Source of the DNA: a virus
DNA length: 64,000 nt
IMG/VR virus record: IMGVR_UViG_3300044568_002423
Reading direction: 5' to 3' (one strand)
In this document: positions 5,746 through 37,636 of the stretch, piece by piece
Position numbering within the stretch: position 1 is the stretch's first letter
How the letters are laid out: each line of letters starts with the position of its first letter
Translations under genes and position numbers: made by a program
The notes under the pieces: model-generated
The model's database searches: none
Seen by the model: the letters and a program-made list of their open reading frames with translations, nothing else
What the model was told of the DNA's origin: nothing

Positions 5746-5813
5746 ATAGATTCTCCCGCATTTTGCTTTGTTGATTTAAATAAAAGTGTATGTTAAGCAT
5801 TATATGTAGATCC

Positions 5814-7940
5814 TTATCTAGTATTCATGTTTGGTGACAATTGTTTAGTAGCTCTAACTTGTTTAGATGTCATGTGCATTGTCTCTGTTGTATTACTTAT
5901 CAATTGAGACATTTGTTTATTCAACTTTTCTAATTGATCGTTTAAATCATCCATTGTCATCTTTGCCTTTGGAAATTCATCATTGGGTGCTTCTTTAGGA
6001 GCCAATTCCTGGTCATTTCTAGGAGATTGTGGGGGAGGTGGCGGCGGAACCATCACACTTGAATTAACCTTTAATGTATCCGCAATACCACTCATGTGTT
6101 TTGTCAATCCACTATCCACAGATGGCTCTGGCGTCATTTGATCAGTGAGATTTAAGCTACCAAATAATTTACTTATTATGTCAGTTGGTTCAGGACTTTC
6201 GGTTGGTGGCATCATATCATTGATAAATTCCCCCATCTTATTAAATGGAACAATGGCTTCATTTGGGTCAACCATCACTTTTTCACGTGGCTTAAAATCA
6301 CCAAACCAACTTCCTAAAACATCCTTGGTGCCGTTAGCAAATGGTCCTCTTATTTTTTCTGCTTCTTCTGTACCAGTTGATGGCCCAGACTTTAAGTAAT
6401 CAACTGCAGCAGTGCCGATTTTGATAACATCAACTGCCATTTCTCCTACTTTTGCTTTTGCTACTGCGGAGAACTTTTCTGGATCCGAAAAACCAAGTCT
6501 TATTGCATCACCGACTTGTGTGGCAATTGATCTATCAAGTTGTGAGGTAATCTCTCCTGTCTTTTCATCTGTCTTTACATTTGCTGTGGCCTCAATGCCA
6601 GTTTTAACTATCGCTTGGGCGCCGACAAAATCATTAAGTCTCCCAAGTTCCCTATAAATACCAGCTTCTTGGTCGGCTATTCTATTTGCAGCTTGTGTCA
6701 TAAGTTGAGTAGTTTTCGCTCCAGCAACATCCTCCCCTTTTATGTTTTTTGATTCTTGTTCCTGCTTAACTCGTTTAGCTAAAATCTCAGCAGCCTCGGC
6801 TTCATTTATGATCTTGCCATTCTTCTTGCCTTCTTCCTGTATTGCTGCCATATCAGCTTGTTGTTTCTTCAATCCCTCGGCATAATTGAGAGTTTTATTT
6901 GCAATTTGTCCGGCCGCATCAGAAACTGGACCCAATCCAGTTTTTACAAGGTTTCTAAAACTTTCTTCAGTTGTACGAGCGGCAACAGCTGCTTGTGCAT
7001 CTGCTAACATTTTTTTAGCAGCGGCGCGTTCTCCCTCTGTAGTGGCGTTCTTGGTTGCTTTCACGGCAGCTTCCAATTGCGTCCCGGCGGGTCCTAACGC
7101 ATTTTGTATTTCTATCGCTTCTTTAGTTTTAGCCTGTCCGGAATATAACACATCAGTAAATTCATTTAATCCCAACCCAGTCATTTGAGCATTCATTTCA
7201 TTATATGCGTCACGTTGTTTCTCACCACCAGCAGCAACAGCATCTTCAATGGCCAATCGAACTCTGGCATTGGTTTTAGATTTTTCCAACGCATCCATTT
7301 GTTCTTTACGACTAACTCCAGTAAGTTTGGCAACTTTATCCATCTCCTGTGCCAAATCACTAGTAGCTTGAAATGCCTGCGTTCTTGATTGGACATCATT
7401 TATGTCAAATTTACGTCTGCCCTGCATACTAAGAGCTAATACTTCATTATATTCAGCAGTAGTGTATCCCATATTACGAAGTTGATCGGCAGCTTTGGTA
7501 TTAGAAAAATCAGTCGATGCCGCAGCAAACACTTTAGCACTGTCAGACATCGTGCCACCCAATGCTGTAAAGCCAGTACTAGTTCTCGATATGGCTTGAC
7601 CAAATTGCTCGGTCCCCATTCTGGTTTGTGCTATTGCGGTCCTATATCCAATCGCATCATTATTAAAACTGATGCCAATCTTTCCAGCATTTTGCCAAGG
7701 TTCAAGATTTTGATTAATGGCAGACGAAATACCAGTTACCCCATTACTAATAAGGCTAGCGGCATTTGAAAGAACTGATTTGGTAGATGAAAGTCCCTCT
7801 GACATTACACTACCACCGGAAGTAGAACCCCCGCCAGTCATTGGATTAATATTTTTTCCAAAACCAGAAATAGCACCCGACAACGTACTTGCTTGTTCTC
7901 GCAATAAATCCCTCATTACCTCTGCTGTTAAGTCTGACAT
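5814..7940 (-). CDS. Probable tail tape measure protein
   Basis: 708 aa, Ala/Gln/Lys-rich helical sequence with LAKLTG-like (VAKLTGVSRKE) motif and a C-terminal FANGT...NEAIVP motif; adjacent to baseplate hub/chaperone genes. Confidence 0.7.
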   Translation of the reverse strand: MSDLTAEVMRDLLREQASTLSGAISGFGKNINPMTGGGSTSGGSVMSEGLSSTKSVLSNAASLISNGVTGISSAINQNLEPWQNAGKIGISFNNDAIGYRTAIAQTRMGTEQFGQAISRTSTGFTALGGTMSDSAKVFAAASTDFSNTKAADQLRNMGYTTAEYNEVLALSMQGRRKFDINDVQSRTQAFQATSDLAQEMDKVAKLTGVSRKEQMDALEKSKTNARVRLAIEDAVAAGGEKQRDAYNEMNAQMTGLGLNEFTDVLYSGQAKTKEAIEIQNALGPAGTQLEAAVKATKNATTEGERAAAKKMLADAQAAVAARTTEESFRNLVKTGLGPVSDAAGQIANKTLNYAEGLKKQQADMAAIQEEGKKNGKIINEAEAAEILAKRVKQEQESKNIKGEDVAGAKTTQLMTQAANRIADQEAGIYRELGRLNDFVGAQAIVKTGIEATANVKTDEKTGEITSQLDRSIATQVGDAIRLGFSDPEKFSAVAKAKVGEMAVDVIKIGTAAVDYLKSGPSTGTEEAEKIRGPFANGTKDVLGSWFGDFKPREKVMVDPNEAIVPFNKMGEFINDMMPPTESPEPTDIISKLFGSLNLTDQMTPEPSVDSGLTKHMSGIADTLKVNSSVMVPPPPPPQSPRNDQELAPKEAPNDEFPKAKMTMDDLNDQLEKLNKQMSQLISNTTETMHMTSKQVRATKQLSPNMNTR

Positions 7941-7963
7941 AAAAAAACTCCAAAAATGTATGG

Positions 7964-7988
7964 TATAAATACTCTTACTATATTTATA
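7964..7988. promoter_or_regulatory. Pair of oppositely oriented T4-type late promoters (TATAAATA)
   Basis: TATAAATA on + at 7964-7971 and on - at 7988-7981, between the divergent tape measure and gp26-like genes; a gp55-like sigma is encoded in the window. Confidence 0.8.
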
Positions 7989-7999
7989 CGGAGTTAACT

Positions 8000-8827
8000 A
8001 TGGGAAACAACCCTTTACAACAATATTTTAGACAACCGAAGATCTTTTTGAAATTACCATCACTGGGGATGTACAATGACCCAGCTACTATTCAGGGAAA
8101 CGTGGAGAGTTTGCCAATATTTGGTATGACTGGTATGGATCAGGTTATCGTAAAAACACCAGATGCCCTTATTAGTGGGGAAAGTACAGTAAAGGTCATC
8201 GAAAGCTGCTGCCCTAGTGTTAAAGATGCGTGGAAGATAACAAGTATTGACATAGATAGTATTTTAGTTGCGATTAGAATAGCAACATATGGAAATAATT
8301 ATGGAATACAACACACTTGTACAGAATGTGGTAGTCAACATGAATATGATATCGATTTGGGAAGATTTATAACTCACTTTAGTAATTGCGTATATGATTC
8401 AAAAATAATGATAGGAGATTTGATCATTAGAATTAGACCATTGGAGTATAAACAAGCAACTGAATTCAATCTAGCAAACTTTGGTTTACAAAAACAACTC
8501 ATGCAATTAAATGATCTCGAAGATGCTGAATTGAAGAAGTCTATCATATCGACTATATTCAATGATTTGGGTATTTTACAGAATAAAATATTTCTAGCTG
8601 GTATTGAGAGCATTGAAACACCAACCGCACAAGTAACTGAGTGGACATTTATAAAAGAATGGTTGGAAAATTGCGGAAGTGAAATAGCCGATGCGTTAAA
8701 ATTACAATTTGAAAAGAATACTAAAGCCTGGATGGTTCCGCCATCTACAATCAAGTGCACTGATTGTGGACATACAGAAGAGGTACATGTAGAATTAGAT
8801 CAATCAAATTTTTTCGTAAAAGCCTAA
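8000..8827 (+). CDS. Baseplate hub assembly/tail chaperone protein, T4 gp26/gp51-like
   Basis: NPLQQYFRQPKIFLKLPS, DIDSILVAIRIATYG, two CxxC pairs (CTEC, CTDC), ends LDQSNFF. Confidence 0.8.
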   Translation: MGNNPLQQYFRQPKIFLKLPSLGMYNDPATIQGNVESLPIFGMTGMDQVIVKTPDALISGESTVKVIESCCPSVKDAWKITSIDIDSILVAIRIATYGNNYGIQHTCTECGSQHEYDIDLGRFITHFSNCVYDSKIMIGDLIIRIRPLEYKQATEFNLANFGLQKQLMQLNDLEDAELKKSIISTIFNDLGILQNKIFLAGIESIETPTAQVTEWTFIKEWLENCGSEIADALKLQFEKNTKAWMVPPSTIKCTDCGHTEEVHVELDQSNFFVKA

Positions 8828-8870
8828 TAAGAATGACAGAATTAGAGATAGAAGAATATCTTATTAGGCT
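8806..8870 (+). promoter_or_regulatory. Putative -1 programmed ribosomal frameshift element
   Basis: In-frame A_AAT_TTT (8806-8812) and T_TTT_TTC (8809-8815), followed by a perfect 12-bp stem AGCCTAATAAGA (8821-8832)/TCTTATTAGGCT (8859-8870). The -1 frame is open to 9048. Confidence 0.75.
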
Positions 8871-9048
8871 AGATGATGAAGTTTCTCAGTTTAAAGAAGA
8901 GCTGTTTAGAATAAGCTGGTATATGAGAGGTGGGGTAAACATAAATGATCTGTTTCACACCTACACGTATGATGATATTACCATAATGTCAAAAATAATT
9001 AAAGAAAATATAGAATTAACACAAGAAACTAGAATACCATTACTTTAA
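8833..9048 (+). CDS. Small conserved-looking ORF, probably the frameshift ('T') extension of the upstream gene
   Basis: Lies in the -1 frame relative to 8000..8827 and is open from 8764. Sequence ELFRISWYMRGGV..DLF...DDITIMSKIIKENIE; no convincing SD before ATG 8833. Confidence 0.7.
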   Translation: MTELEIEEYLIRLDDEVSQFKEELFRISWYMRGGVNINDLFHTYTYDDITIMSKIIKENIELTQETRIPLL

Positions 9049-23700: not shown

Positions 23701-24161
23701 TTATCTATCATCCAGTGAGTTATAAGGTATTATTTGGTGAGACTGCTTCTCCGGAATTGCAGGCAATATTTAAAATAACAAAAACTCCCGGACAAGTGCT
23801 GTCAGATAACGATATTAAGGCGCAGGTTATTACTGCGATAAACAAGTTTTTCAGTTTAGAAAATTGGGATTTTGGTGATACCTTTTACTTTACCGAATTA
23901 GCAACTTATGTAATGAATAATTTGGCACCAAATATTTCATCATTCGTAATAGTTCCTCGTAAAGGTGATCTTAATTTCGGCAGTCTTTTTGAAATTTCTT
24001 GTTCAAGTAGCCAAATTATTATTAGTGGGGCGACGGTTAATGATATTGAGATTATATCTGGTATAACTTCTAGTAACATTAAATCGGTAAGCGGGACATC
24101 AGTTGATTCCACTGTACTGACACAACAAACAATATCCAGTTCAACCTATGGGAGTAACTAA
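20703..24161 (+). CDS. gp6: Baseplate wedge subunit, gp6-like
   Basis: DFENLR, ENFLELAERRDSVLRLARLISYNPKR, FSDGTFGNIP, TQNRMITGEDY, WDFGDTFYFTEL; late-promoter-like AATAAATA at 20677-20684. Confidence 0.9.
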   Translation: MSATDRQNRLLLAEDWKKIYQSFRNADFQSYDFENLRRVMIDYLRQNYPEDFNDYIESSEYLALIDLIAFLGQSVAFRVDLNARENFLELAERRDSVLRLARLISYNPKRNIPSNGLLKFTTIQTTQSVLDSNGRNLSNQVITWNDPSNPNWYEQFIKVINSAMPTTQQFGNPSDKATIQDIPSEQYRFEAANTDVPVYAFTKLVAGRTMTFEVTSTTFSKENYIYEEAPRIGNKIACVYRDDGRGSASAGTGFFFNFTQGTLNTGTFTISQPSNSESVDINSQGINNTDVWLYRLNSNGVESELWTPVPSFEGNNVIYNSLAKSIRNIYGVTTRAGDAISLTFSDGTFGNIPIGTFRTYYRVSNGLSYTINTPDIRSVSISIPYISSTGQVETLSISLGLSYTIANSDASESNTSIKTNAPATYYTQNRMITGEDYNISPLSVNQQVAKVKAVNRTSSGISRYFDLVDPTGKYSSTNLFADDGVLYSEEYTSDTRFSYTTRTDIEGIIYNTIFDIISSTGVKNYYYSKFINYVTTSLDVAWNSVTVDSNSSTGYIGNMLDGTIYAVGSYTTTDLKYITPGALVKFTAPAGYYFDTFNSNKISTGSANTLGYKSSIWAEVISVVDDGRAVGTGVLSSGDGPIVLNSVIPSGSVITQLIPKWRTVIDASVITTMIDLIFANKPFGLRYDATTQTWQIIFETNLDAVSSFTLGKQGITTNTQQDSSWLLLFTTDNEFYTVTSRETRFIFESDKQIRFYFDNNTKVYDSRNNSVVTDVINILNVNTQPDSTLPFTTDLKWDIVSDFLGLDGYIDNKKIVIAFADTDADGVVDDPELFLNIVSPSTNPLTKYIILQKYTISSGQEDYRYVSNSDDTVIILNSQSEIGSLVQYVSGQYFYFVDTNVVKQLTLPSGKLTPTLDYKVYIGRDKLKFQYTHSADYESRIDPGVSNIIDVYVLSKNYDIVYRQWISGAISTQPLAPSSTELYNTLSPSLNLIKSISDEVIYHPVSYKVLFGETASPELQAIFKITKTPGQVLSDNDIKAQVITAINKFFSLENWDFGDTFYFTELATYVMNNLAPNISSFVIVPRKGDLNFGSLFEISCSSSQIIISGATVNDIEIISGITSSNIKSVSGTSVDSTVLTQQTISSSTYGSN

Positions 24162-27100
24162 TGGCTGATAGCACAAATCCTAACGCAAGTAATAACACTG
24201 CTTCAAATTTTTTACCTAGAATTTATAGAACAGATGCAAATAAGAAGTTTTTACAAGCTACCTTGGAACAATTAATACAGCCTGGTACTGTACAGAAAAT
24301 AAATGGATACATAGGCAGAAGAAATGCTAAAGCGGCTACAGGTGATGATATTTTCATAGCCGCTGTTGATGCCGCTAGGCAGAATTATCAATTAGAACCA
24401 GGATTGATAGTTCAAGACACGTTGAATAATACTACTTTTTTCAAAGATTATATAGATTACATTAACCAAACTGAAGTATTTGGTGGAGACGTATCAAATC
24501 ACGCTCGGCTAAACAAGCAGGAATTTTATAGTTGGGACCCACATATTGATTGGGATAAATTTGTAAATTTTCAAAACTACTATTGGTTACCATATGGTCC
24601 TGACACCATTACCATATATGGGCAAAGAGATAAAATAGAGAGCACGTATACGGTAGTTGTTGAAACAGAAGGCGATAGCAATCAATATCTTTTAACCCCA
24701 AACGGGCTTACTAGAAACCCGACTCTTACATTATATAAAGGACATACTTATAAATTTGAAATTACTAGTTTGGGAAATCCATTTAGTATTAAGACTCATC
24801 GTAGTTCTGGTAGTAATGATCGATATAGTAATTATGGATTAGACGGCGTAGCTGTTGAACAGGGTACAATAACATTTACTGTGCCGCATGATGCCCCATC
24901 TGTTCTTTATTATCAAAGTGAAAATGATACTGACTTGGGGGGTGTCATACATGTATTGTCAATTAACGACAATTCTCATATTGATGTAACGGTTGAAATT
25001 CTTGGAAAGAAGACCTATAAACTGGCCGATGGAACACAATTAAGTAACGGTATGAAAGTAGAGTTTGGCGGGAACGTAGTTCCTGTTGAATACGCAACTG
25101 GGAAATATTATGTAGAAGGCGTTGGAACTGCGATAAAATTGATCAACACTAATGTGTTGGAGTTGGTTGGTGCTTACACGACTTCTGAATCTATATTGTT
25201 TGATTCAACACCATTTGACAAATCGCCATTCAGTGATGCCACTGCATTTGCTGGTACCCCAGACTATCTTCTTATTAACCGAGCTAGTAGGGATCATAAT
25301 CCATGGTCACGTTATAATAGATGGTTTCATAAAGATACCATTGAGGTAAGTGCGACACTAAATGGAAATGTTCCTACATTGGATCAATCTGCCAGGGCTA
25401 CTCGTGCCATAATAGAATTTGAAGCAGATTTGAAATTGTATAATTTTGGAAACACTGCTATTGCTGACGTCGATTTAATTGACACATTTACCACTGATGT
25501 ATTTTCCACTATCGAAGGGTCAATTGGTTATAATATTGATGGGATAAATTTAATTCAAGGGCAGAGAATTTTATTCACTGCTGACACTGACATATTTGTG
25601 AAAAACAAAATATACCAAGTTGAATTTATAGATGTCACACATACATCCATAAATGGGCAAATAAGTCCTCGTCAAATTCATTTGACCGAGGTGTCTGAGC
25701 CGGTTATGAATCAATGCGTTTTGATCCACCAAGGAGTTAAAAACCAAGGAGAAATGTTTTGGTATACTGGCAGCACTTGGCAATTATCCCAACAAAAGAC
25801 TGCGTTGAATCAAGCACCGTTATTTGATGTTGTCGATTCATCTGGTATTAGTTTTGGTAACACTGACTATTATTATGGGTCGACGTTTAATGGTACGAAA
25901 ATATTTTCATATAAGATTGGGAATGGCGGCAATGATTCCGCATTAGGTTTACCATTAACTTATAAAAACATTAACAACGTCGGGGATATTGTTTTTAATT
26001 TTAACTTGATAACTGATATTTTTAGATACAAGGATTTAACGACTGTTATTGATAAAGTTATTGATGTTGGCTATTTGATAAAATATGATTATGCTGGAAA
26101 TACCACTTATGTTAACGGATGGCAGACAAATACCTTACCGCAATCTCAGGCAGCCATACGCATTTACAAATCATCTGGTAAAACAAATAATTTTGATATT
26201 GACATTTTTGATAACGTTCATGAGTTAGATGACCTTATTGTGAAAGTGTATATCAATGGGATAAGACTAGCCAGCACTAAGTGGGATGTGGTTGATGGAC
26301 CAATATATAAAAAAGTTGTTCTTTTAACTGATATTTCCTCAACGGATATATTGACTATCCGCGCATTTTCCGCACAAACAATTAATAGCAATGGCTTTTA
26401 TGAAATACCTATTAATTTACAAAATAACCCATTGAATAACTCAATGGGAGATTTTACACTTGGGGAAGTTCTCGACCATGTAACTACCATAGTTGATAAC
26501 ATTGAAACTCTTGTTGGTGAATTTCCAGGATCGAGCAACTTACGAGACCTTGGGAATGTAACACAATATGGAACTCGATTTGTTCAACATAGCGGACCAG
26601 CAAGTTTGTCAATCTATCATATGACGTCTGATACCAACAATGTTATTAGGGCTGTTGAAAAAAGTCGTGATGATTATAATAATTTCAAACGCAGGTTTAC
26701 CTCAGTTTCATCAACGTTGGGTATTGATACTGATGTTGCAACCCATGTAAATTTAGTATTACAGGAAATGAACAAAGATAAGCCAAATAATGCTCCTTAT
26801 TATTTTAGTGATATGGTTCCGTGTGGGGCAAACATAAAGACTGTATTGACTGTAGTGGATTATAGAATAAAAACATATCCATTGACATCGGTGTTTAATT
26901 TAGATGAATTATCCAACCAGGCAGTGATCGTGTATGTAAATGACACACAGTTGATGTATGGGCGTGATTATACATTTAGTAGTCAGGGGTTTATTGTTGT
27001 TTCCGCCACATTGCAGAATGATGATACTATAACTATTTTTGAATATGAAAATACTGATGGGTGTTTTGTACCAGAAACTCCTACTAAGCTTGGTATTTGG

Positions 27101-30100
27101 CCAAAGTATGAACCAAAAATATATATCGATACTAGCTTAATTACACCTCGTACCATGATTCAAGGGCATGATGGCAGCCAAGTTTTGGCGTATGGCGATT
27201 ATCGAGATGATTTGATATTAGAATTAGAAAAACGAATTTACAACAACATAAAGGTAAAATATGATGATAGTATTTTTGATATTCATTCATTAATACCAAG
27301 TTACAACAGAAGCACTGATTATAGTTTAGCTGAATTCAATACCGTACTAGCTCCTAGCTTTTATAAATGGACGACTTTGATCGAGCAAGACTTTACCAAA
27401 CCGATGAGTTATGATAGTGCCAATTCATTTACCTTCAACTATCGTGGACATTCTGCGCCTGATGGTAGAGAAACTCCAGGATATTGGCGTGGGGTATATC
27501 GTTGGATATTGGATACAGATCGACCAAATATATGTCCATGGGAAATGTTGGGATTGAGCGAAGCACCATTTTGGTGGGAATCCGTATATGGGCCAGCTCC
27601 TTATACTAGTAATAATTTAATTTTGTGGAAGGATATCAGTGAAGGTGTATTGAAAGAACCTGGAAAACCTGTCGTATATTTGCCAAAATTTGCCAAGCCG
27701 TTTTTGATGCAACATATTCCAGTTGATGAAAATGGAAATATAAAAAGTCCACTTATGACTGATTTGGCCAATGGCATTATAACAGTTTCTACTACTGGTG
27801 ATTTTGTATTTGGTGATGTAAGCCCTATTGAGAATGCGTGGCGCCGTAGTTCACACTACCCATTCAGTGTATTACTTACTTCATTATTATTGACGCCCGC
27901 TAATACATTTGGATTGTTATTAGATAGATCACGTATAGTCAGGAATGTAACTGGGCAGTTAATATACAAGGATACTGGGTTACGAGTAACGCCATCATCA
28001 ATTAAACTACCTAATAGTCATGTCAGTACTGAAAGGATACAGACAGCTGGGATTATCAATTACATTACCAATTATATAATGAGTGATAATTTAACAACTT
28101 ATTCCTCTTACCAAACTGATTTATCTATGCTGACAATTCGACTGAGTCATCGGTTAGGATCCTTTACCAGTAAGGAGAAATTTAATTTAATATTGGATTC
28201 AAAAACTCCGTTATCATCCGGTAGTGTATTTGTCCCACCAGAAAATTACGATATAATTTTAAACAGTTCCAGTCCGGTTAAGAAAATTACCTATAGTGGC
28301 GTTATCATTACTAAATTGGCAGATGGATTTGAAGTTAAGGGGTATAGCAGAACTCATCCATATTTCAACTATTATTCCTGGGAACAATCTGGAATTAATA
28401 TTAACGTGGGTGGCATATCGGAGAGTTATATTAATTGGACTAATAACCAATATTATCCTTCTGGAAAAATAGTTAATTATAACAACAGATATTATAGAGT
28501 AAAAACTTCTCATACTAGTACGACAGAGTTCAATGAACAATACCATACAGTTTTATCTTCACTACCGGTGATTGGTGGGAAAGAAGCTATATTTAGAAAG
28601 CGTTGGGATAGAACTGCTGCGATAACCGTTCCATATAATACAAAATTTACCACAATACAGGACGTTGTTGATTTTCTTTTAGGATATGGGGAGTATTTAA
28701 AAGATCAGGGATTTGTTTTTGATGACTTTAACACAACTATGTCTCAAGTAACTAACTGGGAAACTTCAGCAAAAGAATTTTTATTTTGGACGACGCAGAA
28801 CTGGTCGTCTGGCGAAGATAAGTGGAATGAATGGATTCCTAACACCTTGGTGGTATTTGAAACAATTGTTCGATACAACGGTGATTATTATAAAGCAATT
28901 AGAAATTCTATGACGACCGACATCTTTAATGATGATGATTTCGTTAAATTAGATGGTCTTAGTTCGGTAGGAAGTTCTGTCATATCATTAAGTCCTGCTG
29001 CTAGTAAATTAACATTTAGTGCGCCATATAGTGTAGTGGATGATGTTACAAATCAGTTTAACGGATATGAAATCTATCGAGTAGATGGGCAGCCTATTGA
29101 ATATGATTTTTTGAATTCGTATCGTGAAGACAATAAGGTTAGTTATGCATCTGAAGGGAATGATGGAATATATGGTGCTAGTTTTTATCTAGTACAAAAA
29201 GAACAAATTGTCATTATTGATAATACTACTTTGTTTAACGATACTATATATCATCCAGAAAGTGGTTATAAACAGGACCGAATTAAAGTAGCGGGATATG
29301 TAAGTACAAATTGGTATGGTGCGTTTGATGTGCCGGGCTTTATTTTTGATCAAGCACACATCAGCCGTTGGAGTTCATGGGTTGGGTATGACCTTGGAGA
29401 CATTGTGCAGTATAAGGAATTTTATTACAGCGCAAGTAAAGTCCTACCAGGGGCGGAATCGTTTGTTTCAACTGATTGGATAAGGTTATCTAAAAAACCA
29501 ACCGCTCAGCTCTTACCAAACTGGAATTATAAAGCGGGACAATTTGAAGATTTTTATAGTTTAGATAGTGATAACTTTGATGTCAATCAACAGAAGATGG
29601 CACAGCATTTAATCGGCTATCAAAAACGACAATATTTGGAAAATATCATACAAGATGATGTTAGTGAGTTTAAGTTCTATCAAGGAATGATAATCGAAAA
29701 AGGAACGCAGAATGTTTTCAATAAACTATTTGATGTCCTGAGTGCTGAAAATGAAGAGAGTTTAACATTTTATGAAGAATGGGCATTGCGAGTTGGACAA
29801 TATGGTGCAAATGCCGCATATGAAAACATCGAGTTTATCTTGGACGAGAGTGAGTTTAAAAATAATCCACAGGGATTTGAACTAGTAAGCTCTATAGACA
29901 GATCTAAAGTTGATTTCATATCTAGACAAACATCAAATGACGTGTACTTGAAACCAATCGGGTATGATTCTAATCCTTGGCCGCTTTTAAAAAATGATGT
30001 TTCATATTTAAGATCAGCCGGGTATGTTAGATCCGATGAAGTTCTAATGAGTTTGAAATCAATGAGTGATATTTTAACACAGGATATTTCTCAGTTTTCC

Positions 30101-33100
30101 ACTGGTGATTATGTATGGTGTACATTTGATGCTGCTGGGTGGAATGTGTATAGGTACACGGATGCCAATATCGTTGTTACTGATATAACTTACGATAACA
30201 TTAATTTGACTATAACTACCGATAGCTCGATATTTCTAGAAGTTGGTTCATATATTGGTATAACCCAGGTCACTGGTTTTTCTGGATTTTATGAAATAAT
30301 TTCTGTATCGATGAATATCATGGTAGTTGCTGCATCTGGTATAACTGTGCCAAATCCATTTATTGAGCAAGATGTAGTTATAATTCATACTTTTACTAGT
30401 CAGCGTGCTGCGACCATGGATATAATTGATTCAGTATTGCCAAATAGATTAAAAGAAAATGAAATGTTATGGACCGATGACAATGGTAGTGGACAATGGG
30501 CATCATGGGTCTATTCTCCTGTTTATATTAACAGTACAGTTATTAATCCTGTTCCTGAAGTCTCATTAAATTTTGGAAAATACGTTCAACTTAACAATAC
30601 TGGGAATTTATTAGCTGTATCTACGTCGTTAGGTCAGGTAGTCATTTATGATAAAGCAGGTACTATTAATCCTTGGATCAAACGCCAAACAATAGATGCT
30701 CCTATTATTAAATTAGCTGATAGTTATAATTTACCGAACAATCTGGCAACATCTATCGCGCTATCATTGGATAATCGCTGGCTAGCCACAGGATCTCCGA
30801 TAACTGGACGAGCATCGTATAGTACCAATGGACAGTTAAACGTAGTTGATATTGCCGAGGTGGCATCAACAATCGTAAATCACGGAGTAATATCCATATA
30901 TGAAAAAGATGTTAATAACGTCTACACATTAGTTAATACTATACTGAGTCCAGTACCAGTTCAAGATGAGCTATTTGGTTCTAGTTTGGCATTTGGTAAT
31001 GATGCGTTGTATGTTGGGTCAACCGGCGGTAATGGTAAGATTTATAAGTTGTTATATTCACCAACCGTTTATGCATCGGCTAATTACAATCCAGTTGGAA
31101 GTACTGGTACGACTGTACATTTAAGCAGCATTACTGATATTATTGCTGGAATGACGATATCGGGAATTGGATTTACCCTAGGTCAAGTAGTAACATACGT
31201 TAACAGTGTTGCTAAAACCATTCTGGTAAGTGCTGAACCTGACTCTATTCCCAGTGGAGTTTTAACATTTAGTACTACAGAGTGGAAATATGATTTAACT
31301 AGTACTAAAACTGGGGTTACCACGAATAGCGGATATGGTAGTAAGTTGGATATCAGCAAGGACGGAAATGTTTTGATGTCGGCTGCTCCTGGCTCGGTTT
31401 CATTAGTTGGAAAAGTATTTGTTTATAAAGCTGATAGTTTGGTACAAACTATTACTGGAGGTAATTCATTTTTTGGTAAGAGTATTACTATTTCGGACAC
31501 TGGTTCTTATATTGCTATTTCTGACATATTAGCCGATGGTATTAGGAATAATCAGGGGAATGTCTCTGTTTATATCAACAACGGAACACAGTATGAAATT
31601 TTTCAATCACTGGTAATTAAAAATCCAGAAGTATCTCAATATTTTGGTAGCAATATATCTTTCACTAATGATTACAAAACGTTAGTGGTTTATAGTCCAT
31701 TGGCAGACACTGAGAATTACTGGGTGGTTGACGATGAAACTACCTTTGATGAAAGTACAACAAAATTCTTACTACAAGAAAACATCGACAGTGGTCGTAT
31801 TGATGTCTATAACCAATATGCATCTAAATGGGTGTTTAGTGAAAGCTTGTCGACTAGTAATACCGCTAATGATGGGTATGGATATAGCATGGCAGTTGGT
31901 TCAAATAGCATCATAATAAGTGCCCCATATGCCACAAATGTGTCATCACAATCCGGCTTAGTTTATGAATATAACAAGACTTCTAACACATACAGTTGGA
32001 TGATAAAACATGTTGGTATTATCAAGCCAGATACTAGTAAAATTAAGCAGGCGTTCTTATACAATAGAGTATCTAATAAGTTGATAACATATTTGGATGT
32101 CCTCGACCCACTACATGGAAAGATCCCAGGCATTGCCGATGAAGAAATACGATACAAGGTATTCTATGATCCGGCGATATATTCAATAGGGGGTTCTGGA
32201 ACAACGGTGGACGATGGTTCAGCTTGGAAAAAAGAAAAAGTGGGTTTATTGTGGTGGGATTTGAGAACATCAAAATTTGTCACAAGCAATGATGACGATG
32301 TTGTTTATCGAAATAATACATGGAGTACATTAGCAACTGGTGCCAGTGTTGATATTTACGAGTGGGTTGAATCTAAATATCTTCCTGCTGATTGGGATTT
32401 ACAGGCAGATACCGAATCTGGATTAGCTCTTAATATAAGTGGTACAACTTTATATGGTAACACCGCATACAGCATTGGTCGACGATATGACAATATCAGT
32501 CAAACTTTTAAGAATACCTATTATTTTTGGGTTAAAAATAAAAAGACAACCCCAGCTGTCGTTGGAAGAACTATTTCTGCCAGTTCAGTATCTAACCTAG
32601 TAGGAAATGCTAGAGGTGATGGATATCAGTACTTGGCGCTAACTGGTTCGAACTCATTTAGTTTAGCAAATGTAAAATCCTTATTGAAGGATCGTGATGT
32701 AGTATTATCAGTTGAATATTGGGTAGTTGACAAAATAGATCAAAATATCCATTCTCAATGGAAATTAATAAGTTCTGAAATAAACACTCAACTTCCGTAT
32801 AAAATTGAGAAAAAATGGTTTGATAGTTTATGTGGTAAGGATGAAAAGGACAGGTTGGTGCCAGATATCTCATTGCCGATAAAACTACAATATGGTATTG
32901 AATTTAGACCACGACAATCTATGTTTATTAATAGATTTGAGGCTTTGAAGCAATATGTCGAACAGGCAAACTTAGTCTTACAGGAAAACTTGATATCTGA
33001 GTCTAGAGACCTTTCAAATTTAGAAAGTTACGAGGCAGAACCAAATGTAATTAGAGGATTGTATGATAGTGTTCTTGATACAGACGCGGAATTGAGGTTT

Positions 33101-36100
33101 GCAGCAGTTTCAACTTACACCAGGCCATCATTAATTCCTATAATAACCGATGGGAGAATAACCGGTGTAGAAATAACATCATCCGGTAGTGGGTATTTAA
33201 ATCCTCCGTATATTGAAGTTGTTGGTTCTGGAGTTGATGCTGTCGTTAAGGCAACTATAAATTCATCTGGAAAGATTACAGGAGCGACTATAATCAATAG
33301 TGGAGAAGGTTACACCGATTACACCGTGATGGTAGTTAGGGATTATTCCGTATTAGTTCACAGTGATTCAGAGTCTTCTGGAAATTGGAGCATATATTCA
33401 TATGATCCGACCACATATGTGTGGTCTAGAACTCATTCGCAAACATATGACACTACTAACTATTGGAGTTTTGTTGATTGGTATGCTACTGGATACAACA
33501 AATTTAGTTCAGTAGTAAATTCAGTTGACACCTATTCTGAATTGTTCAATATTGAAGTCAATATAGGCGAGTTAGTTAAGGTAAGAACTACTAATGTCGG
33601 CAATTGGGTAATATTAGAAAAATACGCAGATAGTCAGTCAGTGGACTGGACTTCCTCGTATAAAATAGTAGGAAGTCAAAACGGCACCATTCAATTAAGT
33701 TCATCCTTGTATAAATTTGTCGATACTGGAGTTGGCTATGATAACGTGTTATATGATGGTGGTAATTTTGATAATAATGCGTCGGTCGAACTTCGTAATA
33801 TATTGAATGCAATGAAGAATGATATTTTTATTGATGAGTTAAAATCCTCCTACTTGAATTTATTTTTCACAACAGTCAGGTATGCGTTAAGTGAACAAAC
33901 ATATGTTGATTGGATTTTTAAGACCAGTTTTATAAAAGCAAGGCATACAGTAGGGGCATTAAGTCAGCCAGTTACTTATAAAAATGATAACTTGTCAAAT
34001 TTTGAAGATTATGTCGCAGAGGTAAAACCATATAGGACAAAAATTAGAGAATATATCAGCGCGTACAATAGGCTTGAAGTTGGTGAAATGTCTATAACTG
34101 ATTTTGATTTACCTGCCATATATGAAAATGGACAATTGGGAATAATTGACACACGTGTGACCGATGATGTGATTAGTGTAGATAATTCTATAATTCAAAC
34201 CTATCCTTGGAAACATTGGTTGGATAACGTTGGGTTCACTATAACTGAATTGAATTTAGTTAACTCTGGTTCTGGTTATGTATCAGAGCCAGTTGTTAGA
34301 ATAGTTAGTAATTCAGGGTCGGGCGCCGTTGCTAGAGCTTTTATTGCCAATGGTAGAGTTAATAGAATAACTCTTTTATCCACTGGTAGTGGATATCTAT
34401 CAGCTCCTTCTGTGTATATTGAGGGTGGTTTGGAAACTAGCGGAACAGCAGCTAGAGCAATTGCGGTTATTGGTGATAGTGTGGTTCGTTCAACTCTCGT
34501 TAAAATGAAATTTGATAGAATAACACAAACTTATTTTATAACTAAACTTCAGGAAACAGAAACATTGATTGGGACTGGTTCGAGATTACAATTCCCATTA
34601 ACCTGGGCTCCTGATGTTAGAATAGGAACTGTTACGGTAACGATTAATGGTATCGGTGCGTTAAGAGACAATTATAAATTGAAAATAGTTAAGTCGACCG
34701 CCAAAGGATACACATCGTATTCTGGTTCTATAACGTTTGATTCCGCACCTGCAACTGGAGATGTGGTAGTTGTTACATATTTGAAGGATTGGTCATTATT
34801 AAATGCTGCAGATAGAATTCAATTTTACTACAACCCACAAACGGGTGATTTAGGTAAAGATTTGTCACAATTAATGACTGGTATAGATTATGGTGGGGTT
34901 ATTGTAAGTGGTATTGGATTTGATATCAGTAGAGGATGGGATAGTACTCCATTCTTCTCTGACAAATGGGACACTTCTGATCCAACATTTGATGATTATA
35001 TAGTAGTAGTTGCCGAAGGTACTCATACCTTCACTTTGCCGTATATTCCATCAGTGGGAACCTTAATAAATGTATATCATAATGAAGTACGAATTGATGA
35101 CGAGCAATATGGAACGCCGCAGCAAACTAACGACAATGCGGTAATGTTATCATGGGAGGCTGATGGAGTTTCACAGACTATTGTTATACCAAACACCGTA
35201 GTGGTTTTAGAAACTGATCAGTTTATTTTCCGCAAAACTACAAGTGATGGTTCAATTAAACCACAAGAATCAGACTATGATACTGCGTTGAGCGGAGGAG
35301 ATTTGGCATATAGTACAGCAACTGGATTATCAGCTTCGGATCTTATTATTGATGGTGATGGATTTGTAACACCAACATCAAGTTCAGCTCCTGAAGAAGT
35401 AGTCCCTGGACAGATAGTTGATGCCGTTGCCATTAAGGTTTATGATAGACCTTCTAGTGGTTCTGCCAGTATTAATGTAGACAACTATGTGGCAGACGGT
35501 GAACAAACTGTATTTTCTTTAACGAAGCCTATAAACAGTCCTCGCGCAATTATAGTAAAAGTTTCAAACGGGGTAGATTCTGAAATAAAAACTATCGATA
35601 TTGATTATGAGGTTGATTATCAACATAATTTAGTTATATTTGAACAAGCACCGGAAAACAAGGCTGTCGTGTCTATTTTTGGCATTGGTATAAATGGCAA
35701 TAATATACTGGATGTTGGCTACGTGGTTGGAGATGGACAGGCTACTGAGTTTGTTACAAAAGCACCATGGGTAACACCAGTTACGTCGAATGTATGTATA
35801 AATGGAGTAGTATTCCCATATGAATTATTTCAAATAGATGATTTTATAGGTGTTAGGTTTGCTACGGCTCCTGAAAATGGTGATATAATAAATTATATTA
35901 TCGTCAGTGGTCTAGAGCAATCATTTGCTGTTACCAAAATAGAAAAAATAGCAGTCGATGGTAGGTCTTCCGAACTCCCTTATGATTTATTATATTCCGC
36001 AGGTGATTCATTGCCGATAGAATCAAACATAATAGTTAGAGTTGACAACTTGATTTTATCTAGTCCAAACAATAGTTATTTTACTATAAAGAGTAATAGA

Positions 36101-37636
36101 TTAACTTATGTGATTGATTCGACCAAATTTCTTCCATATTCGGTAGATGTTTACAATATCTCTGTCTTTGCTGGTGGTAACTTACTATCTATTGGCAGTG
36201 ACTATTCAGTTGATTTTAGTGTAATTAGTATTAAATTATCTAGAGTTGCATATGCGACTTATTCTGGACAAACGCTAGTCGTAAGTGTGAATAGAGACAA
36301 TGGGTATTTCTACATACCGCAAAACGGAATAGCTAAAGCCAAAATACTATTTACGGAAACGTATAATAGTCCACAGCAGGTCGAGGTTATAAGTTCTTAT
36401 AAACATGAAGTATTAGATATTCAAAGAACCACTGTTCGTGCTATGACGGACAGTGAGATAATCACGGACACTCCGGCGTATTACTACTACAAAGATATAA
36501 TGGGCGGGATATTACAACTCGAACGAGCGGTGATAAACGATGATTATGTATGGATAGTTAAAAATGGTAATTTGTTAATACCTAGTGTTGACTATAAGTT
36601 GAATGTAAATAAAACATCAGTGACTTTGTCGGTGGATTCTGTTGAAACTGATGAATACACAATAATTACATACGGTAGCAATATTGTTTTACCTAATGTT
36701 GCTTATATGCAGTTCAAAGATATGCTTAATAGAACACATTTTAAACGATTAAGTGCTAACAAACAAACAAAATTGGCTACTGATTTACATTGGAATGATA
36801 TCAAGATATCTGTGGAAGATGCTAGTAATTTTGATATACCAAATCCTGCTGCTAATCGACCAGGGATAATTGAAATTCGCGGTGAACGTATTGAATATTT
36901 CAGTTTAGTAAATACTGGTGGAGTTTGGGAATTAGGACAAATTCGCAGAGGAACGCTTGGTACAGGAACCCCAAGTATTCACCTGGTTGGTGCGTATGTG
37001 CAGGATATCGGATCAAGTGAAACAATACCGTATAGTGAAACATCTGTAATAGAACAAGTTATAGCAGAGGGCACACACAACGTATCATTGACGTTTGTTC
37101 CAACCTTATCAACTGAAGATTGGAGTTCACAATATGCTAGTGGTTTTATATCAGCGATTCCATCTGGGTATGGCCAAGCAAATGATATTGAAGTATTCGT
37201 AGGTGGGTATAGTAACGAGGTTGAATGGGCGGCAAATGTCTCATATGTAGTTGACGCAATTGTTATTGTCGGAAGTTATACCTATAGATGTACTATATCA
37301 CATACTAGTAGTTCAGATTTTAGCCTGGATAGTGCTAACTGGATGTTCTTTATTGGCAATATTAGATTGAAAAAGCACCCATATAGGGTCCACAATGTAA
37401 ATATAAATCCAGACAGTCCAGATGGAGATATTCAATTTGATGCTGATTTCTCGGTTGATGGGATTGACAATAATATATATTTAACGAATGTATTATCAAC
37501 CGGCACGATAGTAACAGTGGTGAAACGTACAGGAAATAAATGGAATAATGAAGGTGATATACAACGTGGTACTGGCAAGATTGAAAAATTTTTGAAAGCA
37601 ACACCGGGAATCTGGTATACACAAATGAATCAATAA
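24161..37636 (+). CDS. Giant (4491 aa) multidomain baseplate/virion protein at the gp7 position
   Basis: Uninterrupted 13.5-kb ORF directly after gp6; contains CBM5/12-like aromatic motifs, FG-GAP-like repeats and SGSGY repeats. Confidence 0.75.
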   Translation: MADSTNPNASNNTASNFLPRIYRTDANKKFLQATLEQLIQPGTVQKINGYIGRRNAKAATGDDIFIAAVDAARQNYQLEPGLIVQDTLNNTTFFKDYIDYINQTEVFGGDVSNHARLNKQEFYSWDPHIDWDKFVNFQNYYWLPYGPDTITIYGQRDKIESTYTVVVETEGDSNQYLLTPNGLTRNPTLTLYKGHTYKFEITSLGNPFSIKTHRSSGSNDRYSNYGLDGVAVEQGTITFTVPHDAPSVLYYQSENDTDLGGVIHVLSINDNSHIDVTVEILGKKTYKLADGTQLSNGMKVEFGGNVVPVEYATGKYYVEGVGTAIKLINTNVLELVGAYTTSESILFDSTPFDKSPFSDATAFAGTPDYLLINRASRDHNPWSRYNRWFHKDTIEVSATLNGNVPTLDQSARATRAIIEFEADLKLYNFGNTAIADVDLIDTFTTDVFSTIEGSIGYNIDGINLIQGQRILFTADTDIFVKNKIYQVEFIDVTHTSINGQISPRQIHLTEVSEPVMNQCVLIHQGVKNQGEMFWYTGSTWQLSQQKTALNQAPLFDVVDSSGISFGNTDYYYGSTFNGTKIFSYKIGNGGNDSALGLPLTYKNINNVGDIVFNFNLITDIFRYKDLTTVIDKVIDVGYLIKYDYAGNTTYVNGWQTNTLPQSQAAIRIYKSSGKTNNFDIDIFDNVHELDDLIVKVYINGIRLASTKWDVVDGPIYKKVVLLTDISSTDILTIRAFSAQTINSNGFYEIPINLQNNPLNNSMGDFTLGEVLDHVTTIVDNIETLVGEFPGSSNLRDLGNVTQYGTRFVQHSGPASLSIYHMTSDTNNVIRAVEKSRDDYNNFKRRFTSVSSTLGIDTDVATHVNLVLQEMNKDKPNNAPYYFSDMVPCGANIKTVLTVVDYRIKTYPLTSVFNLDELSNQAVIVYVNDTQLMYGRDYTFSSQGFIVVSATLQNDDTITIFEYENTDGCFVPETPTKLGIWPKYEPKIYIDTSLITPRTMIQGHDGSQVLAYGDYRDDLILELEKRIYNNIKVKYDDSIFDIHSLIPSYNRSTDYSLAEFNTVLAPSFYKWTTLIEQDFTKPMSYDSANSFTFNYRGHSAPDGRETPGYWRGVYRWILDTDRPNICPWEMLGLSEAPFWWESVYGPAPYTSNNLILWKDISEGVLKEPGKPVVYLPKFAKPFLMQHIPVDENGNIKSPLMTDLANGIITVSTTGDFVFGDVSPIENAWRRSSHYPFSVLLTSLLLTPANTFGLLLDRSRIVRNVTGQLIYKDTGLRVTPSSIKLPNSHVSTERIQTAGIINYITNYIMSDNLTTYSSYQTDLSMLTIRLSHRLGSFTSKEKFNLILDSKTPLSSGSVFVPPENYDIILNSSSPVKKITYSGVIITKLADGFEVKGYSRTHPYFNYYSWEQSGININVGGISESYINWTNNQYYPSGKIVNYNNRYYRVKTSHTSTTEFNEQYHTVLSSLPVIGGKEAIFRKRWDRTAAITVPYNTKFTTIQDVVDFLLGYGEYLKDQGFVFDDFNTTMSQVTNWETSAKEFLFWTTQNWSSGEDKWNEWIPNTLVVFETIVRYNGDYYKAIRNSMTTDIFNDDDFVKLDGLSSVGSSVISLSPAASKLTFSAPYSVVDDVTNQFNGYEIYRVDGQPIEYDFLNSYREDNKVSYASEGNDGIYGASFYLVQKEQIVIIDNTTLFNDTIYHPESGYKQDRIKVAGYVSTNWYGAFDVPGFIFDQAHISRWSSWVGYDLGDIVQYKEFYYSASKVLPGAESFVSTDWIRLSKKPTAQLLPNWNYKAGQFEDFYSLDSDNFDVNQQKMAQHLIGYQKRQYLENIIQDDVSEFKFYQGMIIEKGTQNVFNKLFDVLSAENEESLTFYEEWALRVGQYGANAAYENIEFILDESEFKNNPQGFELVSSIDRSKVDFISRQTSNDVYLKPIGYDSNPWPLLKNDVSYLRSAGYVRSDEVLMSLKSMSDILTQDISQFSTGDYVWCTFDAAGWNVYRYTDANIVVTDITYDNINLTITTDSSIFLEVGSYIGITQVTGFSGFYEIISVSMNIMVVAASGITVPNPFIEQDVVIIHTFTSQRAATMDIIDSVLPNRLKENEMLWTDDNGSGQWASWVYSPVYINSTVINPVPEVSLNFGKYVQLNNTGNLLAVSTSLGQVVIYDKAGTINPWIKRQTIDAPIIKLADSYNLPNNLATSIALSLDNRWLATGSPITGRASYSTNGQLNVVDIAEVASTIVNHGVISIYEKDVNNVYTLVNTILSPVPVQDELFGSSLAFGNDALYVGSTGGNGKIYKLLYSPTVYASANYNPVGSTGTTVHLSSITDIIAGMTISGIGFTLGQVVTYVNSVAKTILVSAEPDSIPSGVLTFSTTEWKYDLTSTKTGVTTNSGYGSKLDISKDGNVLMSAAPGSVSLVGKVFVYKADSLVQTITGGNSFFGKSITISDTGSYIAISDILADGIRNNQGNVSVYINNGTQYEIFQSLVIKNPEVSQYFGSNISFTNDYKTLVVYSPLADTENYWVVDDETTFDESTTKFLLQENIDSGRIDVYNQYASKWVFSESLSTSNTANDGYGYSMAVGSNSIIISAPYATNVSSQSGLVYEYNKTSNTYSWMIKHVGIIKPDTSKIKQAFLYNRVSNKLITYLDVLDPLHGKIPGIADEEIRYKVFYDPAIYSIGGSGTTVDDGSAWKKEKVGLLWWDLRTSKFVTSNDDDVVYRNNTWSTLATGASVDIYEWVESKYLPADWDLQADTESGLALNISGTTLYGNTAYSIGRRYDNISQTFKNTYYFWVKNKKTTPAVVGRTISASSVSNLVGNARGDGYQYLALTGSNSFSLANVKSLLKDRDVVLSVEYWVVDKIDQNIHSQWKLISSEINTQLPYKIEKKWFDSLCGKDEKDRLVPDISLPIKLQYGIEFRPRQSMFINRFEALKQYVEQANLVLQENLISESRDLSNLESYEAEPNVIRGLYDSVLDTDAELRFAAVSTYTRPSLIPIITDGRITGVEITSSGSGYLNPPYIEVVGSGVDAVVKATINSSGKITGATIINSGEGYTDYTVMVVRDYSVLVHSDSESSGNWSIYSYDPTTYVWSRTHSQTYDTTNYWSFVDWYATGYNKFSSVVNSVDTYSELFNIEVNIGELVKVRTTNVGNWVILEKYADSQSVDWTSSYKIVGSQNGTIQLSSSLYKFVDTGVGYDNVLYDGGNFDNNASVELRNILNAMKNDIFIDELKSSYLNLFFTTVRYALSEQTYVDWIFKTSFIKARHTVGALSQPVTYKNDNLSNFEDYVAEVKPYRTKIREYISAYNRLEVGEMSITDFDLPAIYENGQLGIIDTRVTDDVISVDNSIIQTYPWKHWLDNVGFTITELNLVNSGSGYVSEPVVRIVSNSGSGAVARAFIANGRVNRITLLSTGSGYLSAPSVYIEGGLETSGTAARAIAVIGDSVVRSTLVKMKFDRITQTYFITKLQETETLIGTGSRLQFPLTWAPDVRIGTVTVTINGIGALRDNYKLKIVKSTAKGYTSYSGSITFDSAPATGDVVVVTYLKDWSLLNAADRIQFYYNPQTGDLGKDLSQLMTGIDYGGVIVSGIGFDISRGWDSTPFFSDKWDTSDPTFDDYIVVVAEGTHTFTLPYIPSVGTLINVYHNEVRIDDEQYGTPQQTNDNAVMLSWEADGVSQTIVIPNTVVVLETDQFIFRKTTSDGSIKPQESDYDTALSGGDLAYSTATGLSASDLIIDGDGFVTPTSSSAPEEVVPGQIVDAVAIKVYDRPSSGSASINVDNYVADGEQTVFSLTKPINSPRAIIVKVSNGVDSEIKTIDIDYEVDYQHNLVIFEQAPENKAVVSIFGIGINGNNILDVGYVVGDGQATEFVTKAPWVTPVTSNVCINGVVFPYELFQIDDFIGVRFATAPENGDIINYIIVSGLEQSFAVTKIEKIAVDGRSSELPYDLLYSAGDSLPIESNIIVRVDNLILSSPNNSYFTIKSNRLTYVIDSTKFLPYSVDVYNISVFAGGNLLSIGSDYSVDFSVISIKLSRVAYATYSGQTLVVSVNRDNGYFYIPQNGIAKAKILFTETYNSPQQVEVISSYKHEVLDIQRTTVRAMTDSEIITDTPAYYYYKDIMGGILQLERAVINDDYVWIVKNGNLLIPSVDYKLNVNKTSVTLSVDSVETDEYTIITYGSNIVLPNVAYMQFKDMLNRTHFKRLSANKQTKLATDLHWNDIKISVEDASNFDIPNPAANRPGIIEIRGERIEYFSLVNTGGVWELGQIRRGTLGTGTPSIHLVGAYVQDIGSSETIPYSETSVIEQVIAEGTHNVSLTFVPTLSTEDWSSQYASGFISAIPSGYGQANDIEVFVGGYSNEVEWAANVSYVVDAIVIVGSYTYRCTISHTSSSDFSLDSANWMFFIGNIRLKKHPYRVHNVNINPDSPDGDIQFDADFSVDGIDNNIYLTNVLSTGTIVTVVKRTGNKWNNEGDIQRGTGKIEKFLKATPGIWYTQMNQ

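Follow-up and report, generated by a model that had tools for sequence, protein, structure and literature searches.

A 64,000-nucleotide (nt) stretch of viral DNA (IMG/VR virus record IMGVR_UViG_3300044568_002423; hereafter the window) carries at positions 8000-8827 a gene of the T4 gp26/gp51 family that very probably yields two proteins by programmed -1 ribosomal frameshifting. These would be a short form of 275 amino acids (aa) and a long form of 349 aa, analogous to the G and GT proteins of phage lambda. Taken jointly with this reading, and at the same high probability, the gene appears to belong to a T4-related jumbo phage and to encode its chaperone for tail or baseplate-hub assembly. The window contains a frameshift signal at the 3' end of the gene, this signal is conserved among relatives, the -1 frame downstream of it is coding, and homologs exist in which the same two parts are fused in frame. 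At the sequence level, the two forms have a common body, and the transframe product is extended at its C-terminus. The coordinates of all features are collected in Table 1.

In Pfam, the 275-aa product matches PF12322 (T4_baseplate) with 54.7 bits against a gathering cut-off of 24.5 (E 1.4e-14), residues 60-272 aligning with profile positions 42-218, and its sole match in PHROGs is phrog_150, a baseplate hub family. The AlphaFold 2 (AF2) model of this product has a predicted local distance difference test (pLDDT) score of 86, with the last 13 residues disordered. Its top matches in BFVD are entries named 'baseplate hub assembly protein, T4-like' (template modelling score, TM, 0.87; E 3.5e-22), and gp26 of Aeromonas phage 25 is among the matches. 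Four cysteines of the body are conserved (C107, C110, C253 and C256). A published list (PMC3004832) has T4 gp26 and gp51 as hub assembly chaperones, with gp51 absent from the particle; the product of the window gene would likewise function as a chaperone. In PA5oct, one of the Rak2-like jumbo phages, the gp336 record has no electrospray ionization tandem mass spectrometry (ESI-MS/MS) note, and both neighbouring genes carry such a note, a slight hint that the family protein may be missing from the virion.

The gene ends TCA AAT TTT TTC GTA AAA GCC TAA, and the two overlapping in-phase heptamers that a preliminary description of this sequence had pointed out, A_AAT_TTT and T_TTT_TTC, are both present. 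For the comparison, 160 related loci were fetched from metagenomes and IMG/VR (47-57% protein identity, mostly lake samples); a scan of IMG/VR for relatives with the single protein gave no match and an alignment-based scan succeeded. Deduplication left 118 distinct loci, with the window and three cultured phages among them, and 114 of these are complete for the -1 frame. The preliminary description had asked whether homologs keep NFF coded as AAT TTT TTC. This held for TTT TTC, T_TTT_TTC being in phase in 118 of 118 loci, and not for A_AAT_TTT, which is kept in only 47 of the 118; the working site is therefore T_TTT_TTC. It had also named synonymous loss of the slippery site and a random phase between the two frames as grounds for giving up its reading, and neither was seen, the phase being -1 in every relative. 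Elsewhere in the same genes, Phe is coded 977 times by TTT and 176 times by TTC (TTC, 15%). The codon before TTT TTC always ends in T, through seven codons for six amino acids, and the naive log10 P for this fixed T is -27, a value that is overstated because the sequences are related. Re-pairing of the P-site tRNA is the only process that requires a T at this position, and the invariant CG after the heptamer is accounted for by the Arg codon of the extension. In Escherichia coli, U_UU.C is the second most efficient slippery tetramer and H_HH.U_UU.Y heptamers belong to the most efficient class (PMC4066793).

The -1 frame continues for 77 codons beyond the heptamer, as had been described, so that about 349 aa stand against 275 aa. 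This length is kept in 110 of the 114 complete loci, the other four having 70, 71, 73 and 81 codons. Conservation of the peptide begins directly behind the heptamer, at its first codon, with Arg1 and Leu4 invariant, and the entropies at the three codon positions are 0.88, 0.51 and 1.33. Third positions vary most, and judged by this substitution pattern the -1 frame evolves as coding sequence. The AF2 model of the extension has a pLDDT of 90.9 and consists of three helices; Pfam holds no family for it, and Foldseek against the PDB gave no match.

A profile made from 96 extensions gave 269 matches among 1.84 billion representative proteins. Seventeen of these are proteins of 319-351 aa that carry the domain in frame at their C-terminus. 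The junction of the fused proteins, LDFSEMFRAKLI, aligns gap-free to the transframe LDQSNFF/RKSLI (the slash marks the shift), and the same is true of the longer stretch ..LDFSEMFRAKLIRLSDEEI.. against the transframe ..LDQSNFF/RKSLIRMTELEI.., so that the shift site is fixed by alignment with these natural fusions. The neighbourhood of two fused genes was fetched, and each gene follows immediately on a short paralog of the PF12322 family (294 and 300 aa); both short paralogs end 2-4 residues after an SFF or NFL motif. In one phage whose short and long paralogs are distinct genes (locus L172, 1680-1704), the short gene still ends TCT TTT TTC AAT GAC TAA with the heptamer in phase, although its -1 frame closes immediately. 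This ending may be left over from an earlier frameshift. The extension profile also matches five stretches of a 1435-aa protein (P0338), the best at residues 1234-1284 (E 8.6e-9).

The stem-loop begins 5 nt after T_TTT_TTC and is as the preliminary description had drawn it, with perfectly complementary arms of 12 bp, a 26-nt loop, the zero-frame stop within the stem and the bases before ATG 8833 buried; the 5' arm ends one base before this ATG. An 85-nt fold at the shift site reaches -19.4 kcal/mol (z = -3.1), and none of 200 shuffles is as stable. Across 100 distinct relatives, 91.7% of the cells in the 12 pairs are standard, compared with 17-52% when the partners are slid. Double-sided changes were found in 70 cells against 22.8 +/- 3.8 in shuffles, none of 500 shuffles reaching 70, and RNAalifold independently predicts a 9-bp core of the stem. 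The compensatory changes (A-U to G-C, U-A to A-U or C-G, G-C to A-U) argue for RNA pairing. Rfam gave no match within 8600-9200.

We infer the slippage itself, its efficiency and the binding partners of the two forms. In the mechanism that we propose, most ribosomes would stop at TAA 8825 and give the short form. A fraction would slip back by one base with tRNA-Phe on UUU in the P site (8810-8812) and on UUC in the A site (8813-8815); in the -1 frame both tRNAs would again find UUU, and full pairing is kept in the change from UUU-UUC to UUU-UUU. These ribosomes would then read CGU (Arg, from 8815) and 77 codons in all, up to 9048, and the 349-aa product would have the junction ..SNFF-RKSLIRMTE.. 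The ribosome is probably held up by the 12-bp stem that lies 5 nt downstream, and slippage would thereby become more frequent. On the analogy of lambda G/GT, the common body might act on the tape measure or the hub, and the helical extension might recruit another tail component.

The two frames could instead be independent genes, the small one being translated from ATG 8833 by coupling or by re-initiation after the stop at 8825, with no fusion. The window does have an ATG 5 nt after the stop and a called ORF (open reading frame) of 71 aa, and small downstream ORFs are annotated in GAP32, 121Q, XbC2 and others. We nevertheless regard this arrangement as very improbable, since the start is not conserved: at the codon homologous to ATG 8833, 9 of 118 loci have ATG, 10 have TTG and 80 have a non-start Leu codon (TTA or CTN). 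Independent initiation at 8833, which the preliminary description had set against its own reading, is contradicted by these counts. In 76 of 114 loci there is no ATG, GTG or TTG before extension codon 36, yet the peptide that these codons encode is conserved. The stretch 8818-8832, inside the stem, shows no Shine-Dalgarno sequence, and the start site is buried there. Small ORFs among the matches of the extension profile have ragged starts (41, 58, 70-75 and 89-98 aa), which is what gene callers give when there is no real start, and the in-frame fusions are a further argument against separate genes. The PA5oct extension is without any start codon, and the records of PA5oct and RaK2 annotate no ORF downstream.

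The fusion might also arise at the level of transcription, if RNA polymerase slipped on T6 and some mRNAs, shorter by one base or longer by two, encoded it directly. The run is homopolymeric, an almost identical protein would result, and comparative data alone cannot fully separate the two mechanisms. T6 is shorter than the usual runs, as efficient transcriptional slippage in bacteria usually needs about 8-9 bases. The perfectly phased X_XXY_YYZ, a covarying stem at the canonical 5-nt spacing and the lack of a run of seven T in any of the 118 loci also speak for the ribosome, and slippage of the polymerase is the less likely process and, in our estimate, an improbable one. That no recoding takes place at all is an explanation to which we give practically no weight. 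TTTTTTC would then be kept for Phe-Phe alone, which is invariant at the protein level and is found in T4 gp26 (..FFELL) without a slippery site, and the downstream frame would be open by chance or be a degenerating remnant. However, synonymous positions are fixed as well (the choice of TTT-TTC and the preceding third base), and the -1 frame keeps its length, shows the substitution pattern of coding sequence, has a confidently predicted fold and is in frame in other phages.

Several points weigh against programmed ribosomal frameshifting in a lambda-like chaperone. The 349-aa transframe form is predicted here from sequence comparison, and the window phage may make some 71-aa product by independent or re-initiated translation from ATG 8833. 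Both stem arms lie within conserved coding sequence, which inflates the apparent pairing. The covarying stem that the preliminary description had suggested looking for across homologs is borne out in the freshwater clade by the 70 double-sided changes and fails in the Rak2-like phages. A conserved stem-loop was looked for in eight cultured phages of this group and not found, so that the stem is a freshwater-clade feature and a clade-specific stimulator at most. A lambda-type chaperone fold was not detected in the PDB, VIA-align and BFVD comparisons, and the identity of the 708-aa neighbour as a tape measure protein is weak (see later in the text). As to a link with the tail of T4 gp51, hhalign placed the extension profile and the gp51-tail profile collinearly with a P of only 0.006. 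Cross-searches with hidden Markov models (HMM) between the jumbo-type extension and gp51 or cyanophage tails gave marginal values, E 7e-4 to 0.03 per sequence, and for the T4 gp51 tail E was 0.005 to 0.03.

PF12322 spans the whole of T4 gp26 (208 aa), which ends three residues beyond Phe-Phe; the codons of this pair, TTC TTT, do not make a slippery site. In T4 gp51 (249 aa), PF12322 covers residues 1-201 and is followed by a 48-aa tail, assigned to PF28602 in precomputed annotation. The shift site of the window lies at the end of the PF12322 domain and thus exactly where gp26 stops and gp51 continues. T4 resembles the window in having PF12322, a short form that ends 2-3 residues after Phe-Phe and a long form extended from the same boundary. 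However, T4 uses two divergent paralogous genes without a slippery site, whereas in the window one gene with a -1 frameshift would provide both forms, which would correspond in architecture to gp26 (short) and gp51 (long). Per whole record, two PF12322 genes were counted in T4 and one each in GAP32, PA5oct, 121Q and RaK2; five partial freshwater contigs have one each. The 77-aa extension of the window, which carries an ISWYMRGG motif, does not match the 48-aa tail significantly in sequence, and neither the extension profile nor the transframe profile reached significance against T4 gp51 in hhalign. The relation between the jumbo-type extension and the gp51-type tail is one of positional equivalence only, and homology is not claimed. 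For T4 gene 26 (locus L164, 7803-8090, - strand), a second product, 26', that begins at an internal start is annotated, so that this gene too yields more than one protein.

As in lambda gpG/gpGT, the -1 slip proposed for the window would take place near the 3' end of a chaperone gene that adjoins a tape measure candidate, and would give a short and a C-terminally extended form. The heptamers differ (T_TTT_TTC in the window, G_GGA_AAG in lambda), and the window body is about twice as long and has the four conserved cysteines. Long-tailed phages generally need their tail assembly chaperone as a short and a frameshift-extended form. A conserved -1 frameshift of tail assembly chaperone genes was reportedly described by Xu, Hendrix and Duda in 2004 and is reviewed in PMC5009743. 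The lambda-type chaperone family (gpG/gpGT, Phage_TAC) gave no sequence match to the window protein, Pfam returning only PF12322 for the body and PHROGs only the baseplate hub. Foldseek of the body against the PDB found no match at E <= 0.001, a sequence search of the PDB found none, and a wide VIA-align comparison returned generic helical hairpins only (Z about 8). Of the G/GT pair proposed in the preliminary description, the short form and the frameshift-extended long form agree with the comparative data; no kinship with lambda was detected in sequence or fold. The comparison supports the window protein as a functional analogue of lambda G/GT and not as a relative in sequence or detectable fold.

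The closest cultured relatives of 8000-8827 are Rak2-like jumbo phages, at about 28-30% identity; blastn of 5800-9900 against phages gave no match. The Rak2-like phages (RaK2, GAP32, CBB, 121Q, PA5oct, XbC2, fHe-Yen9-04 and Hallingskeid) have the same gene, heptamer and extension family as the window, and an in-phase heptamer with an extension of 69-73 aa was found in all eight cultured genera. They also have in common with the window a portal gene, a 700-800-aa structural protein and a divergently transcribed chaperone gene. The Agrobacterium jumbo phage Atu_ph07 is without this synteny; it carries the heptamer at the end of gp26, and its extension matches the window-clade profile with E 1.5e-21. 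For the Rak2-like phages and Atu_ph07, matches to the extension family range from HMM E 2e-14 to 2e-4. These phages differ from the window in an extension of 69-76 aa and in a zero-frame stop 1-9 codons after Phe-Phe. The frameshift is annotated in none of the nine GenBank jumbo-phage records inspected (the eight Rak2-like phages just named and Atu_ph07). Public annotations at the fHe-Yen9-04, Atu_ph07, PA5oct and RaK2 loci appear wrong or incomplete. In Atu_ph07, a 40-aa ORF (locus L175, 3412-3534) covers the last 40 codons of the extension only, and the hub gene of the Yersinia phage fHe-Yen9-04 (locus L170, 689-1564) is recorded as 'Lead, cadmium, zinc and mercury transporting ATPase'.

In the cyanophages S-SM2 and P-SSM2, gp26 ends with GGT or AGT TTT TTC, one codon and the stop, and a -1 ORF follows directly, which the P-SSM2 record labels 'gp51'. 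This extension matches the T4 gp51 tail (BLASTP E 1.8e-6; HMM E 7e-12), and Sullivan et al. (2010, PMC3037559) remarked that cyanophage gp51 reaches about 20% of the length of its T4 counterpart. The gene order in S-SM2 is a tube-like gene (PF23849), gp26, the -1 ORF and a long 'transmembrane' protein, which is the V-G-T-H order of lambda. The cyanophages thus have an extension of the T4 gp51-tail type and a chaperone placed before a long membrane or tape measure-like gene, whereas the candidate tape measure gene of the window is divergent.

The gp26/gp51 genes were reportedly identified as T4-like tail assembly chaperones by Vladimirov, Gautam and Davidson (Virology 2022;566:9-15). According to the passages that cite this paper, some T4-like phages have a short gene and a longer fused gene in place of frameshifting (PMC10885494), and in 'TAC-N genes of T4-like phages' PolyT stretches are known to serve as -1 signals (PMC12846349). 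A 2016 review had described G-T frameshifting as conserved in long-tailed phages 'except T4' (PMC5009743). The preliminary description was not aware of frameshifting being established for T4-like hub-assembly genes, a position that is out of date in view of the 2022 work as cited in PMC10885494 and PMC12846349. As far as the citing passages go, the principle was already published for T4-like phages in 2022, and the window locus is a further case. One GenBank record already labels gp26 'tape measure protein assembly chaperone', and the jumbo-phage literature that was searched contains no mention of a frameshift. If the 2022 paper covers only T4, close relatives or cyanophages, the frameshift of the jumbo lineages (Rak2-like phages, Atu_ph07 and the freshwater clade) could be an unreported and unannotated branch, a suggestion that we make tentatively and think somewhat doubtful. 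An extension domain of its own, 70-77 aa long and of the ISWYMRGG type, would mark such a branch, and the freshwater clade would have a covarying stem-loop as well. Combined with the phages that have a short and an in-frame long paralog in tandem, it would point to repeated switching between one gene with a frameshift and two paralogs as ways of setting the ratio of short to long chaperone. The locus would be a clean natural example resolving the T4 exception, T4-related phages having the gp26/gp51 family either as a single gene that is read with a -1 slip or as a pair of paralogs, and jumbo-phage annotations with ragged small ORFs or nothing downstream could be corrected.

Table 1. Features of the window at and around the proposed frameshift site
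Feature	Coordinates	Strand	Basis
Zero-frame gene, short form, 275 aa, T4 gp26/gp51 family	8000..8827	+	PF12322, phrog_150, AF2/BFVD match
A_AAT_TTT, second in-phase heptamer, not conserved	8806..8812	+	47/118 loci
T_TTT_TTC slippery heptamer, conserved shift site, Phe271-Phe272	8809..8815	+	In phase, invariant in relatives
Extension in the -1 frame, 77 codons and stop 9046-9048; first codon CGT re-reads base 8815	8815..9048	+	Constant length, coding pattern, in-frame homologs
Putative long form, 349 aa (272+77)	8000-8815 joined to 8815-9048	+	Transframe reading
Stem-loop, 12-bp stem 8821-8832/8859-8870, 26-nt loop, contains zero-frame stop 8825-8827	8821..8870	+	Fold, covariation
ATG used by gene callers for the 71-aa ORF; probably internal Met of the long form	8833..8835	+	Poorly conserved start
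708-aa neighbour, candidate tape measure protein	5814..7940	-	Weak similarity, divergent to chaperone gene

The surroundings of the gene are those of a T4-related jumbo phage, with a gp20-type portal, a gp21-type protease, a gp46/47-type nuclease, a gp55-type late sigma factor (14152-14982) and baseplate wedge and hub genes. The preliminary description had placed the chaperone gene next to the tape measure gene; the adjacency stands, and the tape measure identity of the divergent 708-aa neighbour is weakly indicated. Pfam and PHROGs gave no family for this protein, and Pfam found no tape measure family in 35 of its homologs. It shows 23% identity over 214 aa to GAP32_244, which has a faint match to the phrog_167 tape measure family (E 0.028); the RaK2 record notes a similarity of its counterpart to tape measure protein, and Atlas feature matches of the 708-aa protein to tape measure clusters score 0.91-0.92. 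The homologs are 596-958 aa long and show 17-37% identity among relatives with a chaperone that is about 50% identical (loci L021-L147), a divergence and length variation that would fit a tail-length ruler. The sequence TATAAATA, which we take to be the T4-type late promoter consensus, lies at 7964-7971, 29 nt before ATG 8000. Elsewhere in the window, a single ORF of 4491 aa (24161-37636, + strand) follows a gp6-like baseplate wedge gene.

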